5,617 nucleotides of DNA, from the IMG/VR virus record IMGVR_UViG_3300045988_000590, positions 1-5,617 of that record, one strand, 5' to 3'. Made by a program: the position numbers and the translations under genes. This DNA comes from a virus. The stretch's first letter is position 1, and every line of letters starts with the position of its first letter. Of the stretch, positions 1 through 5,617 are shown piece after piece. The notes beneath the pieces are model-generated. The model was not told the DNA's origin. It did not search any database and worked only from the letters and a program-made list of their open reading frames with translations.

Positions 1-55
1 GAAAAGCAGCATCGGCCTTTAAAGACAGCTGGGAAAAAGGCGGGAAAAACATCAC
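1..55. repeat. Left copy of an exact 55-nt terminal direct repeat (circular-genome assembly overlap)
   Basis: gaaaagcagcatcggcctttaaagacagctgggaaaaaggcgggaaaaacatcac occurs at 1-55 and again at 5563-5617. The repeat lies inside the VP2 coding frame, so it is not a biological terminal repeat. Confidence 0.95.
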
Positions 56-110
56 ACCATACACGTCAATCAATCCTAATCAGATAATGGGCGCATATAG
101 AGGAGATTAA
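1..110 (+). CDS. VP2: 3' end of the VP2 (DNA pilot / minor capsid) gene, continuing across the circular junction from 4782-5617
   Basis: Positions 1-55 are identical to 5563-5617. 5562 is divisible by 3, so the reading frame is preserved across the junction. The frame reads ...KNITPYTSINPNQIMGAYRGD and stops at TAA 108-110. With 4782-5562 this gives a 296-aa protein. Confidence 0.8.
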   Translation, partial: KAASAFKDSWEKGGKNITPYTSINPNQIMGAYRGD

Positions 111-285
111 GTTTTCAACAGTTTCAACAGTTTCAACAGGTTTTCAACAAAGAAAAACACAAAAAAATTGGCCGTTAAAGAACTTTCAACAATTCAACAA
201 GTTTTCAACAAAACTTTCAACAAAAAAGAAGGTGATAAATATACGTATCAACGCTAAAAATTAGACTATTCAACAGTTTAAACAG
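111..285 (+). repeat. Iteron-like array of TTCAACA / GTTTCAACA repeats in non-coding DNA
   Basis: Perfect TTCAACA at 114, 123, 132, 143, 185, 193, 204, 216 and 269. Degenerate copies at 246-253 (tatcaacg) and 276-284 (gtttaaaca). The array has two clusters of four (114-149 head-to-tail with 9-11 nt period, and 185-222) plus a third pair. All copies share one orientation. No ORF with a ribosome-binding site is present. Confidence 0.9.
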
Positions 286-288
286 GGC

Positions 289-303
289 CTACTACTACTA
301 CTA
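289..303. repeat. (CTA)5 microsatellite
   Basis: ctactactactacta read directly at 289-303, in non-coding DNA. Confidence 0.9.
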
Positions 304-422
304 CAACAAGTAATAGATAGAGCAAATAAAGTAAAATAAAAGCCCTTCCGCGCAAAGCTAAGGTTTCCCAACACAGGGACACCAAAGAGACAAAAAGAAG
401 AAGAGCATAAGAGTAGTAAAAC

Positions 423-453
423 AGGGGCCGTCAAACTACCGTTGACGGCCCCT
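423..453. other. Perfect 12-bp GC-rich stem-loop (candidate terminator and/or ssDNA origin hairpin)
   Basis: aggggccgtcaa (423-434) pairs perfectly with ttgacggcccct (442-453). The loop is actaccg (435-441). It is followed by ttt on + and by gtttta on the complement. Confidence 0.7.
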
Positions 454-457
454 TTGC

Positions 458-485
458 GACAGCGTCCCCTAACGCGGGGACTGTC
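458..485. other. Second, imperfect stem-loop immediately after the first
   Basis: gacag (458-462) pairs with ctgtc (481-485). After a 2-nt bulge, tcccc (465-469) pairs with gggga (476-480). The loop is taacgc. Confidence 0.5.
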
Positions 486-507
486 ACATCGATAGATGCT
501 AAGGTAT

Positions 508-542
508 TGCGCGCACGCGCGCGAAACGCGCACGCGCACGCA
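508..542. repeat. Alternating pyrimidine-purine CpG-rich tract (two 16-nt blocks separated by AAA)
   Basis: tgcgcgcacgcgcgcg (508-523), aaa, cgcgcacgcgcacgca (527-542). Every position within each block alternates Py-Pu. gcgcacgcgc is directly repeated at 511-520 and 528-537. The two blocks can also pair as a hairpin (13 of 16 positions). Confidence 0.8.
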
Positions 543-574
543 ATTTAAATCAAAAACGAAAGAGAGGTGTCAAC

Positions 575-605
575 TGGCGCAAGATAGACAAGTAAGCTTG
601 CGCCA
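575..605 (+). promoter_or_regulatory. 9-bp inverted repeat ending 5 nt upstream of the Rep start codon
   Basis: tggcgcaag (575-583) pairs with cttgcgcca (597-605). The loop is 13 nt. The Rep ATG is at 611 and no Shine-Dalgarno lies between. Confidence 0.5.
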
Positions 606-610
606 AACCT

Positions 611-1609
611 ATGCCATGTACAAATCCGAATGTTTTCCAGATGAACACGAAAAAGCCAACCATGTGGGGAAGTCTAAACTACCTAAAGAAACAGAACCTA
701 GAACAAACCATCATGGACGGCGTAAAAAAAGGAAACCTTGCATTATTGCCATGCGGAAAATGTGAATACTGCCGAAAACAGATGGCAGACCAATGGGCAA
801 CGAGAATAGAACTAGAGGCCCAAAAATGGAAAGATGTGATTTTCGTTACAATGACCTACGACGAAGAACACGTTCCATACGGCGAAATTCTAAAAGGATA
901 CCAAAGTATTCAATCTCAAACAGTAAGCAAAAGAGACGTGCAGCTTTTTCTAAAGCGTCTCAGAAAAGCATACAAGAAGCCGATAAAATACTTCATAGCA
1001 GGAGAGTACGGAGACAAAACAAAAAGGCCACACTACCACGGAATTTTTTTCGGACTAAAACCAAAGGATGGAGTATGGTACAAAAACCAAAAGGGCAACG
1101 CGTACTTTAAGAGCGAATGGCTAACGAACTTATGGGGAAAAGGCTTTGTAGACTTTTCCCCAGCAGCACCGGGTTCCTACGCATATGTGGCACAGTACGT
1201 CAATAAAAAAGCAATCGGCGCAGAGCAGAGCGCAAAATACTGGATGCAAGGCCGTGAACCAGAGTTTAGAATCATGTCAAAAGGCATCGGGGAAGAGTAC
1301 CTAAAAGAGCACATGAACGAAATACTAGAAACCGACAACATCACATGCGCAGGAGGACGGCAGAAAAGGCCACCAAGATACTTTGACAAGCTTCTTGATA
1401 AAGAAGATACCAAAAAAGACACTGAAAGCTATTTCAAGGCTCATTCTGACAAGCTGAGAGCGGTAAGAGCCAAAAGACGAAGAAACGCAGTGCTAAGCCT
1501 TGTAAACTTAGAGCAAAACAACAGTGTTCCATACTCAACATACCTAGAGATACAAAAAGAAAAAAACAAGCAAAAACAAAAGTGGAGAGAACCAAAAGAG
1601 ATCTTATAA
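611..1609 (+). CDS. VP4: Rolling-circle replication initiator, Microviridae VP4 / HUH endonuclease
   Basis: 332-aa ORF. The N-terminus MPCTNPN and PCGKCEYCR (nt 749-775) are typical of gokushovirus VP4. RCR motif 1 is FVTMTY (842-859). The HUH motif is PHYHGIFFG (HYH at 1031-1039). The tyrosine motif is YAYVAQYVNKK (1178-1210). It ends at TAA. Confidence 0.93.
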   Translation: MPCTNPNVFQMNTKKPTMWGSLNYLKKQNLEQTIMDGVKKGNLALLPCGKCEYCRKQMADQWATRIELEAQKWKDVIFVTMTYDEEHVPYGEILKGYQSIQSQTVSKRDVQLFLKRLRKAYKKPIKYFIAGEYGDKTKRPHYHGIFFGLKPKDGVWYKNQKGNAYFKSEWLTNLWGKGFVDFSPAAPGSYAYVAQYVNKKAIGAEQSAKYWMQGREPEFRIMSKGIGEEYLKEHMNEILETDNITCAGGRQKRPPRYFDKLLDKEDTKKDTESYFKAHSDKLRAVRAKRRRNAVLSLVNLEQNNSVPYSTYLEIQKEKNKQKQKWREPKEIL

Positions 1610-1674
1610 CCAATAAAGCAAAACGCCTGCAGCGGGCAAGTGTGCGCAACGTCAAAATTTTTCAACGAAAAACC

Positions 1675-1703
1675 TTGACTTTTGCACACACTGACAATAT
1701 AAT
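1675..1703 (+). promoter_or_regulatory. Near-consensus sigma70/sigmaA-type promoter for the late (structural/lysis) gene block
   Basis: TTGACT (1675-1680), a 17-nt spacer, then TATAAT (1698-1703). An A/T-rich stretch aaaattttt lies upstream. It sits in the Rep-to-ORF8 gap, about 30 nt upstream of the ATG at 1734. Confidence 0.65.
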
Positions 1704-1733
1704 AAAACCAGAACGCAGAAAGGAGGTAACACA

Positions 1734-1850
1734 ATGGCACATCGTAGCGGCGCAGGCCGTGGCGATCAACGGAAGTTTACACAGACCGCAAAGCGGACGA
1801 AAAACATCAACGTCCGGCCGAAGGTCAGCCGGGGCGGCATCCGGCTGTAA
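1734..1850 (+). CDS. Small arginine/lysine-rich DNA-binding protein (functional analogue of phiX174 J / gokushovirus ORF8)
   Basis: AGGAGG at 1721-1726 lies 7 nt before the ATG at 1734. The 38-aa product is MAHRSGAGRGDQRKFTQTAKRTKNINVRPKVSRGGIRL, with 11 R/K and 1 D. The C-terminal RGGxRL ending matches what I recall for small basic microvirus proteins. It is below the length cutoff of the ORF track. Confidence 0.75.
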   Translation: MAHRSGAGRGDQRKFTQTAKRTKNINVRPKVSRGGIRL

Positions 1851-1884
1851 TGTTCCAAACGGAACAATGAAAGGAGGTGAACAA

Positions 1885-1992
1885 ATGGACTTTAATGAAA
1901 GCATGAACATCTTTCTGAAAATTCTCGCAATGCTGGATAAGATTTACCACGCAATTGTGAAGGAAGAGGAAGAGACTGAAGAGGAAGAGTAA
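1885..1992 (+). CDS. 35-aa hypothetical protein, amphipathic N-terminal helix with poly-Glu tail
   Basis: AGGAGG at 1872-1877 lies 7 nt before the ATG at 1885, the same aggaggt(g)aaca..atgg context as the 1734 ORF. The product is MDFNESMNIFLKILAMLDKIYHAIVKEEEETEEEE. The stop TAA (1990-1992) is 1 nt before the peptidase ATG. An alternative in-frame ATG at 1867 lacks an SD. The 136-aa track ORF 1582-1992 starts at a GTG inside Rep and is not credible as a whole. Confidence 0.55.
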   Translation: MDFNESMNIFLKILAMLDKIYHAIVKEEEETEEEE

Positions 1993-1993
1993 G

Positions 1994-2389
1994 ATGCCAC
2001 GTGAAGAATACAGCTTATTTAATCAGAGCACCCACCAGATAAGTGAACACTTCAAAGTAAAAGAATTTGCACAAAAAGACTTCCGATGCGACAAGGTAAT
2101 TGTGGACACAGAACTTATAGACGTTTTGGAAGATATACGCGCACATTTCAACAAACCGGTGATTGTAACATCTGGATACCGGACACCAGAATACAACGCA
2201 AAAATCGGCGGTGTAAAAAACTCACAACACACAAAAGGCACGGCGGCCGATATCCAAGTATCTGATATTCCGGCAAGATGGGTACAAAAGTATCTGAAAG
2301 ACAAATATCCAAATAAATACGGCATCGGAAGTTATTTAACTTTCACACACATAGACATAAGAGCTAAAAAAGCACGTTGGAGGGGCTAA
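1994..2389 (+). CDS. Zinc D-Ala-D-Ala carboxypeptidase-like cell-wall peptidase, M15 family (Peptidase_M15_3 / M15A-like)
   Basis: 131 aa. It carries SEHFKVKEF, SGYRTPEYNAKIGGVKNSQHTKGTAADI and FTHIDIR. This is the H-x6-D...H zinc triad (H79 at nt 2228-2230, D86, H119) and the SGYR..N..GG..S.H..G.A.D signature of this family. No N-terminal hydrophobic signal is present. Confidence 0.9.
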   Translation: MPREEYSLFNQSTHQISEHFKVKEFAQKDFRCDKVIVDTELIDVLEDIRAHFNKPVIVTSGYRTPEYNAKIGGVKNSQHTKGTAADIQVSDIPARWVQKYLKDKYPNKYGIGSYLTFTHIDIRAKKARWRG

Positions 2390-2392
2390 AAA

Positions 2393-2647
2393 ATGACACT
2401 GAAATTCTACAGTTTTCACGATGCAATCACGAATGGCTACAGCAGCCCTTTCTTGCAGCAGAACAGGGCGCAGGCAATCCGAACCGCAAAGTGGAAGGCA
2501 AACGAGTCCAAACTGCAGGAAATCGAGGACATCAGTTTGGTAGAGCTGGGCGACTTCAACACGGAAACCGGCGAAATGTTCGGAGCAAAACCGAACCAGC
2601 TGTGCAAGCTGGTAGACCTTAAGGAGACGTACAATGCTAAATCCTAA
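2393..2647 (+). CDS. VP5-like non-structural protein (gokushovirus ORF5 family, proposed ssDNA synthesis/packaging role)
   Basis: GGAGGGG at 2379-2385 lies 7 nt upstream of the ATG at 2393. The 84-aa product has FYSFHDAITNGYSSPFLQQNRAQAIR and EDISLVELGDFNTETGEM. These match the remembered VP5 pattern (..yD.....y..PF......A.R.f ... eD..L.e.G.fd..tG). Confidence 0.75.
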   Translation: MTLKFYSFHDAITNGYSSPFLQQNRAQAIRTAKWKANESKLQEIEDISLVELGDFNTETGEMFGAKPNQLCKLVDLKETYNAKS

Positions 2648-3065
2648 CGTTCTGGTACGGTACTACGGAATGCCAACCGAAAGAGTGACAAGCAAAACCG
2701 GCAGCGAAACGGCACCAACGTGGAAAGCGGTAAAGCGACCGAACGGCAAAACGGACTACATCCGACAACCGGATGAAAATGTCTACGAAAAAATTCAGAA
2801 GGCGGGCGAGGGGTACGACCTCGCAAGCGCAATCGCGAGACTAGAAGCCGGAGATTTTTCCATCAAAGCAAAGAGCACAATCTACACAGAAGGCACGCCA
2901 CTGGAAAATCTGCCTAAAGACATCGTGACGATGCACGAAACGGCACAGAGGGCAGCGGAAACGCTGGAACAGCTGAAACAGACACAGAAGACCGAACAGC
3001 CGAAGCCGGAAGAGAAGCCGGAAGAAAAAAAAGAGGAGGTGAAGCAGAACGAACCGGAACAGTGA
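2634..3065 (+). CDS. Putative internal scaffolding protein (VP3-like) with E/K/P-rich C-terminal tail
   Basis: AAGGAG at 2621-2626 lies 7 nt before the ATG at 2634. It overlaps the VP5-like stop by 14 nt. It is 143 aa and sits directly upstream of VP1. The segment TEGTPLENLPKDIVTMHETAQRAAETLEQL loosely resembles the VP3 'D.t.lP......a...F..L' region. Coding status is likely. The functional call is tentative. Confidence 0.6.
   Translation: MLNPNVLVRYYGMPTERVTSKTGSETAPTWKAVKRPNGKTDYIRQPDENVYEKIQKAGEGYDLASAIARLEAGDFSIKAKSTIYTEGTPLENLPKDIVTMHETAQRAAETLEQLKQTQKTEQPKPEEKPEEKKEEVKQNEPEQ
3002..3025 (+). repeat. Perfect 12-nt tandem duplication inside the VP3-like gene
   Basis: gaagccggaaga at 3002-3013 and again at 3014-3025. 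It encodes the repeated KPEE/KPEE part of the low-complexity tail. Confidence 0.9.
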
Positions 3066-3090
3066 AAGCCATTTCGCGCAAGTACCGAGA

Positions 3091-4743
3091 ATGGAAAGAC
3101 CGCGATCAAAATTTGACCGCGGTCATCAGCTTTTGACGACCATCAACGAAGGCGAACTGGTACCAATCTATATGGATGAAGTGCTGCCGGGTGACACGGC
3201 ACGGATACAGCTTAACGGGCTTATTCGTATGAGCACACCTATCTATCCCATCATGGATAACTGCTACATGGACACATATTTCTTCTTTGTGCCTGCAAGA
3301 CTTTTGTGGGAACACTTTGAAAATATGTTCGGTGAAAACGACACCGACTATTGGGCAGAAGATACAGAGTATTCCACTCCTAAATGCACCATCGGCGGCA
3401 CCAGCGGCCTTGAAAATGGTTCCATCGGTGACTACTTCGGACTGCCGACACAGGTAACGAACGCGCTGGAAGTAAACGCATTACCTGCACGAGCATACTG
3501 CAAAATTTACAACGAGTGGTTCAGAGATGAAAATCTCGAAGCGCCGCTTATGTTGGGATACAAAAAAACGGATGACGGTGGAACGACCGCAGACGCAAGC
3601 AAAGTAACCGAAAATGCAAACGCTCTCGACCAGACGACCAACACCAACGAAGCAACGCTGTATGCAATGAAACCGGCAAGGGCGGGCAAATTCCACGATT
3701 ATTTCACATCTTGCCTTCCTTCGCCGTTGAAAAATGCAGAACCGGTAACACTGCCAATGGCAGGAGCAGCGGGAGTATATGCATACTCAGACAAAGAACT
3801 TAAAAATAAAACGGGACAAACAATAAACAGCTTTACAAGTCAAACAGATGCCGGAGGAACAACAAATCAAAGGCTTTACGATATGTTACTCTGGGAAGGA
3901 ACGCCGGCACAAACATATGTAGGAAACGGAACGGCAAAAGAAATAAGCTATCTCGGAGCAGACCTAAGCAACGTAACAGCAACAACCATCAACGACTTAC
4001 GACAAGCTATAGCGCTGCAGCACATCTTCGAAGCCGATGCCAGAAACGGCACGAGGTACAGAGAATTCCTTTCCGGGACATGGGGCGTAACAAGTCCGGA
4101 CAGCCGTCTGCAAATTCCTGAGTACATCGGCGGGCAGCGCATTGCAATCAATGTGAATCAGGTGGTGCAGACCAGCCAGACAGACACCACGACCGGGCAG
4201 GCACTGGGCAACACGGCGGCATACAGCCTGACAACCTGTTCAAAACAGATGGCAGACTATGCAGCAACGGAGTACGGCTATATCATCGGTCTGGCAGTGG
4301 TACGAGTGGAACACAGCTACCAACAGGGCCTTGGAACCAAATGGACGCGCGGCGGTCGTTTCACGTACTACGACCCACGTCTTGCAGCACTGGGTGAACA
4401 GCCAGTATACAATCGCGAGATCTACGCAGACGGAAGCGAAAAAGATAGCCAGATTTTTGGCTATCAGGAAGCTTGGGCGGATTACCGCTACAAGCCTTCC
4501 TACGTAACCGGAGAAATGAGGTCAAACTATCAGACGTCTTTGGATGCATGGCACTATGCAGACGACTATGACAAGCTGCCGACACTGTCGGCGGAGTGGA
4601 TTCAGGAAGGACGTGAAAACATCGATAGAACTATTGCGGTAACGTCCGCAGTAAGCCACCAATTCTTGTGTGATTTCTGGTTCAATGAAACGTGGTTCAG
4701 GGAAATGCCTATCTATAGCATCCCGGGAATCGAAAGAATTTAA
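3091..4743 (+). CDS. VP1: Major capsid protein VP1 (Microviridae F-protein family)
   Basis: 550-aa ORF. RSKFDRGHQLLTTINEGELVPIYMDEVLPGDT followed by YFFFVP is the hallmark N-terminal block of Microviridae capsid proteins. Large T/N/G-rich insertions lie at aa ~158-190 and ~221-296. It ends at TAA 4741-4743. The true start is probably upstream of 3091 (see findings). Confidence 0.95.
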   Translation: MERPRSKFDRGHQLLTTINEGELVPIYMDEVLPGDTARIQLNGLIRMSTPIYPIMDNCYMDTYFFFVPARLLWEHFENMFGENDTDYWAEDTEYSTPKCTIGGTSGLENGSIGDYFGLPTQVTNALEVNALPARAYCKIYNEWFRDENLEAPLMLGYKKTDDGGTTADASKVTENANALDQTTNTNEATLYAMKPARAGKFHDYFTSCLPSPLKNAEPVTLPMAGAAGVYAYSDKELKNKTGQTINSFTSQTDAGGTTNQRLYDMLLWEGTPAQTYVGNGTAKEISYLGADLSNVTATTINDLRQAIALQHIFEADARNGTRYREFLSGTWGVTSPDSRLQIPEYIGGQRIAINVNQVVQTSQTDTTTGQALGNTAAYSLTTCSKQMADYAATEYGYIIGLAVVRVEHSYQQGLGTKWTRGGRFTYYDPRLAALGEQPVYNREIYADGSEKDSQIFGYQEAWADYRYKPSYVTGEMRSNYQTSLDAWHYADDYDKLPTLSAEWIQEGRENIDRTIAVTSAVSHQFLCDFWFNETWFREMPIYSIPGIERI

Positions 4744-4753
4744 GAAAGGAGGA

Positions 4754-4780
4754 AGCCGGGCAAAGACCCGGCTATTTTTA
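4754..4780 (+). terminator. Rho-independent terminator downstream of VP1
   Basis: The 7-bp stem pairs agccggg (4754-4760) with cccggct (4767-4773). The loop is caaaga. It is followed by attttta (five consecutive T at 4775-4779). It begins 11 nt after the VP1 stop. Confidence 0.7.
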
Positions 4781-4781
4781 A

Positions 4782-5617
4782 ATGGGTACACTTTTATCAT
4801 GGATGCCGTACATCATGCAGGGGCTTAGCCTGCTGACAAGCGTTGCAATGAGCTCAAACCAGAGCAGTGCAACAAGCAGCCAGAGAGCCGGAAAAGAAAC
4901 ATCAAGCGGAAGCGAAACAACAACCGGAAGCCTGACAGCACCGCAGCAAATTGGCTCAACACAGATTGGAACACCAACAGGCATCACCACATACAACAAT
5001 CAGGGCAGCGTAAACATGGCAAACGGCATGAGCTTTTTAAGCTCTATTATCAGTAATCTGATGAACGCAGGAAGCCAAGCAAGCGCAAAAAAGTACAACT
5101 CCGCAGAAGCGGCGGCAGAAAGAGCCTTTGCAAAGGAAATGCGCGGCACAGCATATCAGGACACTGTAAAGGACATGATCGCAGCGGGCATCAATCCAAT
5201 ACTAGCGGCAAACAACGGCGCAACAGCAACGCCAAGCGGGGCAAGTGCAAGCATCGGAACACAGCACTACAACCAGCAGAGCGCACAAGCGGCGGCAGTA
5301 TCAGCTATGTACGAATACGGCAACAACACCGCAGAGCTGGCAAACCGATATCTAGAGCTGGCAAAGAAAAGCACCAGTGCAAAGCAGTACCATTCTGCAA
5401 AGAGCTTTAATGAAGCGGCAAGCAGTCTGGCACAATCAAGTGCAAAACAGGTCAGTAATTACAACTATGCGGCAAACAACTTACTCGACGAGCTGGGAGA
5501 CGCAGGAAACAAACTAAGAGACGCAGGAGACAAAGCGGCCGAATCAGCAAAAGGCGCAGGCAGAAAAGCAGCATCGGCCTTTAAAGACAGCTGGGAAAAA
5601 GGCGGGAAAAACATCAC
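4782..5617 (+). CDS. VP2: DNA pilot / minor capsid protein VP2 (5' part; continues through the circular junction to 110)
   Basis: The frame is open from the ATG at 4782 to the window end, so it has no stop and is absent from the ORF track. It contains AERAFAKEMRGTAYQDTVKDMIAAGINPILAA, the conserved TAYQ..v.DM..AG(I/L)NP.LA core of Microviridae VP2/H-like proteins. The flanks are S/T/A/G/Q-rich low-complexity sequence. Other in-frame ATGs are at 4803 and 4815. Confidence 0.9.
   Translation, partial: MGTLLSWMPYIMQGLSLLTSVAMSSNQSSATSSQRAGKETSSGSETTTGSLTAPQQIGSTQIGTPTGITTYNNQGSVNMANGMSFLSSIISNLMNAGSQASAKKYNSAEAAAERAFAKEMRGTAYQDTVKDMIAAGINPILAANNGATATPSGASASIGTQHYNQQSAQAAAVSAMYEYGNNTAELANRYLELAKKSTSAKQYHSAKSFNEAASSLAQSSAKQVSNYNYAANNLLDELGDAGNKLRDAGDKAAESAKGAGRKAASAFKDSWEKGGKNI
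5563..5617. repeat. Right copy of the exact 55-nt terminal direct repeat
   Basis: Identical to 1-55 base for base. Confidence 0.95.

Follow-up and report, generated by a model that had tools for sequence, protein, structure and literature searches.

The stretch of DNA analysed here, called the window below, is the 5,617-nucleotide (nt) virus record IMGVR_UViG_3300045988_000590 of IMG/VR (positions 1 to 5,617), and the subject of this text is the start of its VP1 gene, which encodes the major capsid protein of a gokushovirus and probably begins with an ACG codon. The full-length coding sequence occupies 3049..4743 on the + strand (564 codons and a stop). Upstream of it, the VP1 frame is closed by a TGA at 3040..3042 (+), two codons 5′ of the ACG, and by a second in-frame stop located further upstream. 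The hexamer AGGAGG at 3034-3039 immediately precedes this TGA and forms with it an extended Shine-Dalgarno (SD) sequence, AGGAGGTGA (3034..3042, +), whose last three bases are the stop codon itself. The proposed initiation codon, ACG 3049..3051 (+), lies 9 nt after the last G of this SD. The frame is open from 3043 onward and its 16 codons up to 3090, SRTNRNSESHFAQVPR, run into the first ATG at 3091..3093 (+), continuing as MERPRSKFDRGHQLLTT. Thirteen of these codons (NRNSESHFAQVPR, 3052..3090, +) separate the ACG from that ATG and are absent from the database annotations of related genomes, where VP1 starts at the internal ATG, a clade-specific codon corresponding to Met-15 of the full-length protein. 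The sequence preceding ATG 3091, gcgcaagtaccgaga, contains no purine-rich SD. Most other genes of the window are preceded by one, and the open reading frame (ORF) starting at ATG 1885 carries the same AGGAGGTGAA motif at 1872-1881.

The region is shared with an upstream gene. A VP3-like internal scaffolding ORF of 143 amino acids from the program-made ORF list (2634..3065, +), with its own SD (AAGGAG) 7 nt 5′ of ATG 2634, terminates at a TGA (3063..3065, +) that begins 14 nt after the A of the ACG. The VP1 frame is +1 relative to this ORF, whose last 17 nt overlap the VP1 start. A first-pass annotation, made by a model from the letters and the ORF list, had pointed out the AGGAGG placed 9 nt before an in-frame ACG, the VP1 frame open over 16 codons behind TGA 3040-3042, the missing SD at ATG 3091, the SD context common to the 1885 ORF and the position and relative frame of the VP3-like stop, all of which are borne out by the sequence. 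Its further statement that the interval 3043-3090 contains no ATG, GTG or TTG is correct in frame, where none of the 16 codons is of this kind, and incorrect out of frame, where a GTG occurs at 3062-3064.

Comparison with known capsid proteins places the beginning of VP1 homology before the first ATG. The Pfam profile Phage_F (PF02305) matches the ACG-started protein with an E-value of 9.2e-147 (490 bits), over residues 10-560 and profile positions 1-500 out of 501, and the capsid proteins of PDB entries 9cgm and 8des match it with E-values of 1e-117 and 1e-107, respectively. The Phage_F match starts five residues upstream of Met 3091, and the solved capsid protein of gokushovirus EC6098 (8des) aligns from residue 2 (NRNSESHFAQVPRMERPRS versus NAKSQHNFSVIPSANIQRS). 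Since both alignments begin before Met 3091, VP1 homology must extend upstream of the first ATG, in agreement with the conserved N-terminal block that the first-pass annotation had cited.

The search for relatives retrieved 71 IMG/VR sequences, and the start position is covered in 64 clade sequences comprising the window, GenBank records and IMG/VR contigs. At this position, ACG occurs in 54 members, ATA in five, GTG in two, and ATG and GCG in one each, the last member being frame-broken. Metagenome contigs were then scanned independently with a pattern from which the start codon had been excluded, rendering it blind to the codon; this added 54 clade members, with ACG in 44, ATA in six, ATG in three and GTG in one. 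After deduplication, 87 distinct sequences remain (70 ACG, 11 ATA, three ATG, two GTG and one GCG). In total, about 118 independently assembled relatives share the same layout, and the ACG itself is present in about 98 assemblies originating from many samples, studies and countries. In about 110 of these roughly 118, the interval from the in-frame stop to the first conserved codon is devoid of canonical starts. The nearest GenBank records are Gokushovirinae genomes, namely KT264784 (94% identical), KX513876, KX513864 and MT121961; these records, from France, China and Ireland, are likewise without a canonical start (three ACG and, in KX513864, one ATA). In all four, the SD contains an in-frame stop and is followed by two variable codons and by ACG or ATA, after which comes NRNSE.HFAQVPRM. 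At the position of the window's TGA 3040-3042, the VP1-frame stop is TGA in 60/64 relatives and TAA in 2/64, and the SD takes the form GAGGTGA or GGAGGTGA in nearly all clade members.

The range of codons tolerated at this position is narrow. Apart from the single GCG, the variants consist of ATG and of exactly its three transition neighbours, GTG, ACG and ATA; none of the six transversion neighbours of ATG and no ACA, ACC or ACT was found among the approximately 118 sequences. As judged from base-pair geometry, GTG, ACG and ATA can each pair with the CAU anticodon through one mismatch of the G-U or A-C type. By a rough calculation, 7 of the 36 codons within two substitutions of ACG are start-like (about 19%), and the probability that four of five independent derived states would be start-like is about 0.006, a figure obtained by simple arithmetic on the tree and not phylogenetically rigorous. 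The VP1 tree identifies ACG as the clade's ancestral codon. ATA was derived once and defines a subclade, GCG was also derived once, and ATG and GTG arise at the tips, one tight cluster uniting an ATG (L015), an ACG (L017) and a GTG (L013).

Two members of the clade depart from this pattern. The sole GCG sequence (L044, IMGVR_UViG_3300045988_013551, ~770-800) is two transitions away from ATG and offers no alternative start nearby; it might represent an error, a very weak start or a site tolerating almost any codon. The frame-broken sequence (L058, IMGVR_UViG_3300045988_030479, a partial contig, ~1480-1525) carries an ATG followed by a 5-nt deletion (GAAAC), so that it reads ATG AAC CAG TGA and terminates. 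VP1 is thereby thrown out of frame, either through an indel introduced during assembly or because the genome is defective.

The origin of the ACG becomes apparent from 38 outgroups, consisting of 35 IMG/VR loci retrieved by profile search, whose VP1 is 48-63% identical, and of GenBank records PP511784, MN379640 and KX513873. In every one of them (38/38), an ATG aligns with the ACG or, in two cases, lies one codon further upstream; an SD precedes this ATG with the same spacing, and [NS]RN[SAT]E.H[FY] follows. ACG 3049 is therefore orthologous to the ATG starts of the outgroups, and the GGAGG of the clade SD (GGAGGTGA) is separated from it by the same 9-nt spacer. The overlap with the scaffold gene is also found outside the clade: in PP511784 it measures 17 nt and the scaffold gene stops at the same place as in the window, whereas in KX513873 it is reduced to 4 nt reading ATGA. 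The residue aligned with Met-15 is Ala in all outgroups and Met in 64/64 clade members, indicating that the internal ATG was gained on the very branch that lost the ATG start.

The exact limit of the translated region was located by Fitch parsimony counts on a 55-tip tree. The two VP1-frame codons immediately 5′ of the ACG (-2 and -1) accumulated 22 codon changes, 20 of them altering the amino acid. Downstream, codons 1-5 (NRNSE) underwent 21 codon changes with one amino-acid change, and codons 7-13 (HFAQVPR), which lie outside any other ORF, 38 codon changes with one amino-acid change, including switches between AGC and TCA for Ser and between CGA and AGA for Arg; taken together, these two segments show 59 codon changes for two amino-acid changes. 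VP1-frame constraint thus begins immediately after the ACG. Arg codon 2 is particularly informative: it changed 14 times among CGG, CGA and AGA and always remained Arg, although VP3, which overlaps it in another frame, undergoes P/Q or E/K replacements through these substitutions. Translation of the VP1 frame must therefore reach back to at least 3055, where this frame outranks the constraint exerted by VP3. The alignment of homologues that the first-pass annotation had proposed has accordingly been carried out, and both similarity and purifying selection do reach upstream of Met 3091. The scaffold stop is equally stable, being positioned 14 nt after the start codon in 55/55 tree sequences; the upstream ORF ends within a few tens of nt of the downstream start, a conserved arrangement of the kind expected for a coupled gene pair.

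Considering this comparative evidence, we propose with a probability of roughly 80% that ACG 3049-3051 is the functional initiation codon of VP1. Near-cognate initiation had been the first of three explanations offered by the first-pass annotation, and the notion of a conserved VP1 N-terminus behind an SD-positioned ACG is supported by the 118 or so clade members and the 38 outgroups, which strongly favour it. According to this proposal, the 30S subunit would be positioned by the extended SD AGGAGGTGA 9 nt upstream of the ACG, with which the initiator formylmethionyl-tRNA (fMet-tRNA) would pair through a single C-A mismatch at the middle position. The predicted product is a 564-residue protein with the N-terminus (f)Met-Asn-Arg-Asn-Ser-Glu-Ser-His-Phe. 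The non-ATG state, derived from an ATG start of the outgroup type, is ancestral to a large human-gut gokushovirus clade and retained across it. In Escherichia coli, ACG does initiate translation with an N-terminal Met, as confirmed by mass spectrometry, and it belongs to a class of codons initiating at about 0.1-1% of the AUG level (Hecht et al., bioRxiv 10.1101/063800). Given this weakness, efficient capsid synthesis probably needs help, for which two candidates can be envisaged. One is the unusually strong SD, whose predicted duplex with the 16S rRNA 3′ end averages -13.2 kcal/mol in the clade versus -9.5 in the ATG-start outgroups (Mann-Whitney P=4e-11), a contrast that comes from one clade and hence from one evolutionary event. 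The other is translational coupling, in which the scaffold stop located 14 nt downstream would deliver terminating ribosomes to the site. We infer all three steps, fMet-tRNA initiation at the ACG, compensation by SD strength and coupling to VP3.

Besides the single-clade basis of the SD contrast, several observations weigh against this proposal. For every member of the clade, the case for an ACG start is one of sequence comparison. An efficiency of 0.1-1% fits poorly with a product that is the most abundant protein of the virion, unless coupling, the SD or host factors compensate. The GCG of L044 is not a recognised start, and the series Thr, Ile, Val, Met and Ala encoded at this codon would also fit the conservative replacement of a sense codon. 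Met-15 arose in the same clade and may provide a second start. The main difficulty concerns the persistence of the ACG: if it were some 100-fold weaker, ATG would be expected to sweep. In favour of the proposal, the overlap leaves C3050 free to change, this base being the third of a scaffold Asn codon where AAC to AAT is synonymous in VP3. There is no sign that ACG is preferred over ATG at 3050. Selection against ATG, which would have made C3050 unusually conserved, was considered and is not borne out, as C/T turnover at this position amounts to four Fitch changes versus a median of four at 85 invariant two-fold synonymous sites.

From these counts, start-codon identity looks close to neutral in this clade, which leads to a different way of understanding the locus. 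ACG, AUA, GUG and AUG might interchange nearly neutrally because the identity of the start is almost irrelevant, either through a start-tolerant reinitiation that fixes the scaffold to capsid ratio or through the joint use of ACG and AUG 3091 to give two VP1 proteoforms at a fixed ratio. We regard this as a minority view, improbable and nonetheless worth keeping in mind. The narrower hypothesis of dual initiation, with full-length VP1 made from ACG 3049 and a form 14 residues shorter made from AUG 3091, the ratio being set by the weak codon, appears decidedly doubtful. It draws on the appearance of the internal AUG, Met-15 in 64/64 members and Ala in the outgroups, on the branch that lost the ATG start, and on the E. 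coli figures, which suggest that an SD-less AUG and an SD-led ACG could be similarly inefficient. However, ATG 3091 is not preceded by an SD, nor has one been generated by the choice of synonymous codons before it (CCG CGA or CCG AGA); the strong purifying selection on codons 1-13 implies that the long form is needed; and Met-15 is retained where ATG or GTG was regained at the first site, so that it may be simply structural. Owing to the missing SD and to this persistence, Met-15 is treated here as a structural residue with a possible use as second start.

Returning to initiation at the ACG itself, the first-pass annotation had also suggested a +1 shift out of the VP3 frame, by which ribosomes translating the scaffold gene would slip before its stop and either produce a scaffold-capsid fusion or feed VP1. 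The geometry is suggestive, as VP1 is in the +1 frame relative to VP3 over an overlap of 17-23 nt, an SD-like element before a stop codon recalls the prfB site, and Thr, Ile, Val, Met or Ala at codon 0 would be tolerable for a sense codon. Such a shift would nevertheless be confined to 3043-3054, since TGA 3040-3042 closes the frame on one side and VP1 selection is evident at 3055 on the other. The VP3-frame codons of this interval, AAG CAG AAC GAA in the window and AAG GAA AAC GAA or AGC GAA GAT AAA elsewhere, are non-slippery and differ among subclades, so that no slippery site is conserved, and none of them can re-pair in the +1 frame. The SD is at least 20 nt from the VP3 stop, versus 3 nt in prfB, and outgroups with the same overlap have a plain ATG, as do three or four clade members. 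We know of no precedent for a scaffold-capsid fusion in Microviridae, and frameshifting is very unlikely in our opinion.

No more credible is the proposition that VP1 starts only at ATG 3091 and that the upstream similarity is a relic or a non-coding element. This codon is the first canonical start, is invariant and has been used to annotate KT264784, KX513864, KX513876 and MT121961; yet it lacks an SD, homology to Phage_F and PDB 8des begins upstream of it, and codons 7-13, outside other ORFs, exhibit the 38 codon changes for one amino-acid change that are the signature of translated sequence. The constraint observed right after the ACG disposes of this annotation. The T-to-C consensus error or private variant of an ATG in this assembly, second explanation of the first-pass annotation, can be dismissed: the ACG is indeed one transition from ATG and four clade members carry ATG (L015, L166, L185 and L213), but about 98 independent assemblies contain ACG, which is also inferred to be ancestral, and the GenBank relatives lack a canonical start as well.

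Three other mechanisms were considered and rejected. RNA structure offers no explanation, the VP1 start region 3010-3120 being unstructured, with a fold no more stable than that of shuffled sequence (z=0.70); this lack of structure itself counts in favour of initiation at the ACG and bears on how its weakness might be compensated. Stop readthrough or an alternative genetic code is contradicted by the second in-frame stop upstream, by the use of TGA or TAA among relatives and by the large ORFs, which are intact under translation table 11. Transcriptional slippage on the run of eight A residues at 3025-3032 cannot feed VP1, since the run is followed by the VP1-frame stop at 3040. This run, located in the EEKKEE tail of the scaffold and kept as seven or eight A residues in most relatives, is in its own right a place in VP3 where slippage during transcription or replication could be frequent.

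The window as a whole represents a gokushovirus genome that is circular and complete. Its two ends (1-55 and 5563-5617) are exact direct repeats of 55 nt, which gives a circle of 5562 nt, such a terminal repeat being the usual mark of a circular contig from an assembly with k=55. The genes encode a replication protein (611-1609; Pfam REP_ORF2-G2P), an M15 peptidase (1994-2389; Pfam Peptidase_M15), an ORF5-family protein (2393-2647; Pfam Phage_ORF5), the VP3-like scaffold, VP1 and VP2, whose ORF begins at about 4782 and crosses the contig junction. The VP4 replication protein, VP2, VP3 scaffold and ORF5 together on a circle of about 5.5 kb form the expected gokushovirus context. The scaffold assignment combines a weak Chlamy_scaf match of ORF 2634-3065 (E=0.002, 18.7 bits, below the 25-bit cut-off) with synteny, as the corresponding ORF of PP511784 and MN379640 is annotated 'internal scaffolding protein'. 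The replication ORF (ATG 611) has no recognisable SD upstream (gcgccaaacctATG, window 583-613), unlike most genes of the genome; where and how its translation begins may merit closer attention.

Some indications about the host were also obtained. The use of SDs by most phage genes argues for an SD-using host. The only match in a search of genome contigs was a whole genome of a clade member (L079, CAVKUS010000079.1, 5739 nt, VP1 78% identical) present as a single contig in a metagenome-assembled genome labelled Bacteroides sp. CAG:545; this placement reflects binning and not integration, and constitutes a weak host hint that conflicts with the heavy SD use of the phage. In another contig (L201, ERZ772867.4266, 10896 nt; 1-9000 and 8965-10896), bacterial genes join the phage in the low-complexity VP3 tail (gccgaagccgaaagaggaag), a stretch common to both parts, which is followed by VP1. 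The bacterial part, with a GC content of about 59%, encodes topoisomerase I, thymidylate kinase, the DNA polymerase III delta′ subunit, a LacI regulator and the N-terminal half of a phosphoenolpyruvate-utilising enzyme. This contig is probably a chimeric assembly and could be a clue to the host or to integration.

Initiation at the ACG would have practical consequences for the databases. VP1 is annotated from the internal ATG (MERPRS or MQRPRS) in KT264784, KX513864, KX513876 and MT121961, and KT264784 has even been linearised at this ATG, leaving the true start of VP1 divided between the two ends of the record. The GenBank VP1 proteins of an abundant human-gut gokushovirus clade would consequently be 14 residues short, which touches alignments, structure models and start-anchored coordinates; the same truncation probably affects collections derived from gene callers that accept only ATG, GTG and TTG. 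In biological terms, the retention of an ACG through more than 25% protein divergence, in the structural gene with the highest expression, would imply that the SD or coupling compensates strongly, that the host scrutinises start codons loosely or that capsid output is deliberately tuned. The question is accessible to simple reporters and to one diagnostic tryptic peptide, NSE[S/N]HFAQVPR.

ACG does not belong to the start set of translation table 11 and, to our knowledge, there are next to no reports of it as a conserved natural start, whether in bacteria or in phages. In the open-access literature, we found no description of ACG, ATA or other non-canonical starts in Microviridae or Gokushovirinae. 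Non-canonical initiation is already known as such; what appears to be new is its occurrence, as an ACG/AUA start, at the major capsid gene throughout a clade of phages.

The closest comparison is with canonical gokushovirus VP1 starts such as those of PP511784 (Dulem virus 206), KX513873 and MN379640, which present the same succession of an SD, about 9 nt, the start and NRNSE.HF..QVP; in PP511784, moreover, the opening codons of VP1 are covered by the scaffold gene, whose stop again falls 14 nt past the start. These outgroups differ by their ATG, their weaker SD and an Ala in place of the Met-15 of this clade. Termination-reinitiation coupling, as known from ATGA overlaps and from the restart scanning model of MS2 lysis, resembles the present arrangement in that fewer than 20 nt separate the end of the first gene from the start of the second, whose SD is contained in the coding sequence of the first; here, in contrast, coupling is deduced from the layout and the restart codon would be non-canonical. 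The AUU starts of E. coli infC and pcnB likewise involve no AUG, GUG or UUG and a codon one base off AUG, spaced from an SD, conserved in relatives and expected to yield Met as first residue (Hecht et al., 10.1101/063800, and established knowledge). The differences are that the codon is ACG here (AUA in a subclade), that the product is the most abundant structural protein instead of a low-abundance autoregulated factor and that no feedback logic through initiation factor 3 is evident. The +1 frameshift of prfB, encoding release factor 2, shares an SD-like element 5′ of an in-frame UGA and a downstream frame that is +1; unlike prfB, the window has no slippery site of the CUU UGA C type, more than 20 nt separate its SD from the VP3 stop (3 nt in prfB) and the candidate region is variable. 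Finally, an ACG is also encountered where the start of a capsid or organelle gene is expected in adeno-associated virus (AAV) VP2 and in plant organelles, where ACG is edited to AUG. Eukaryotic leaky scanning and organellar C-to-U editing are mechanisms not known in bacteria, and these cases serve as analogies only. In AAV, the weak ACG codon sets the stoichiometry of the capsid proteins; should the two-proteoform version of VP1 synthesis prove true, this gokushovirus clade would provide its counterpart in a bacterial virus.

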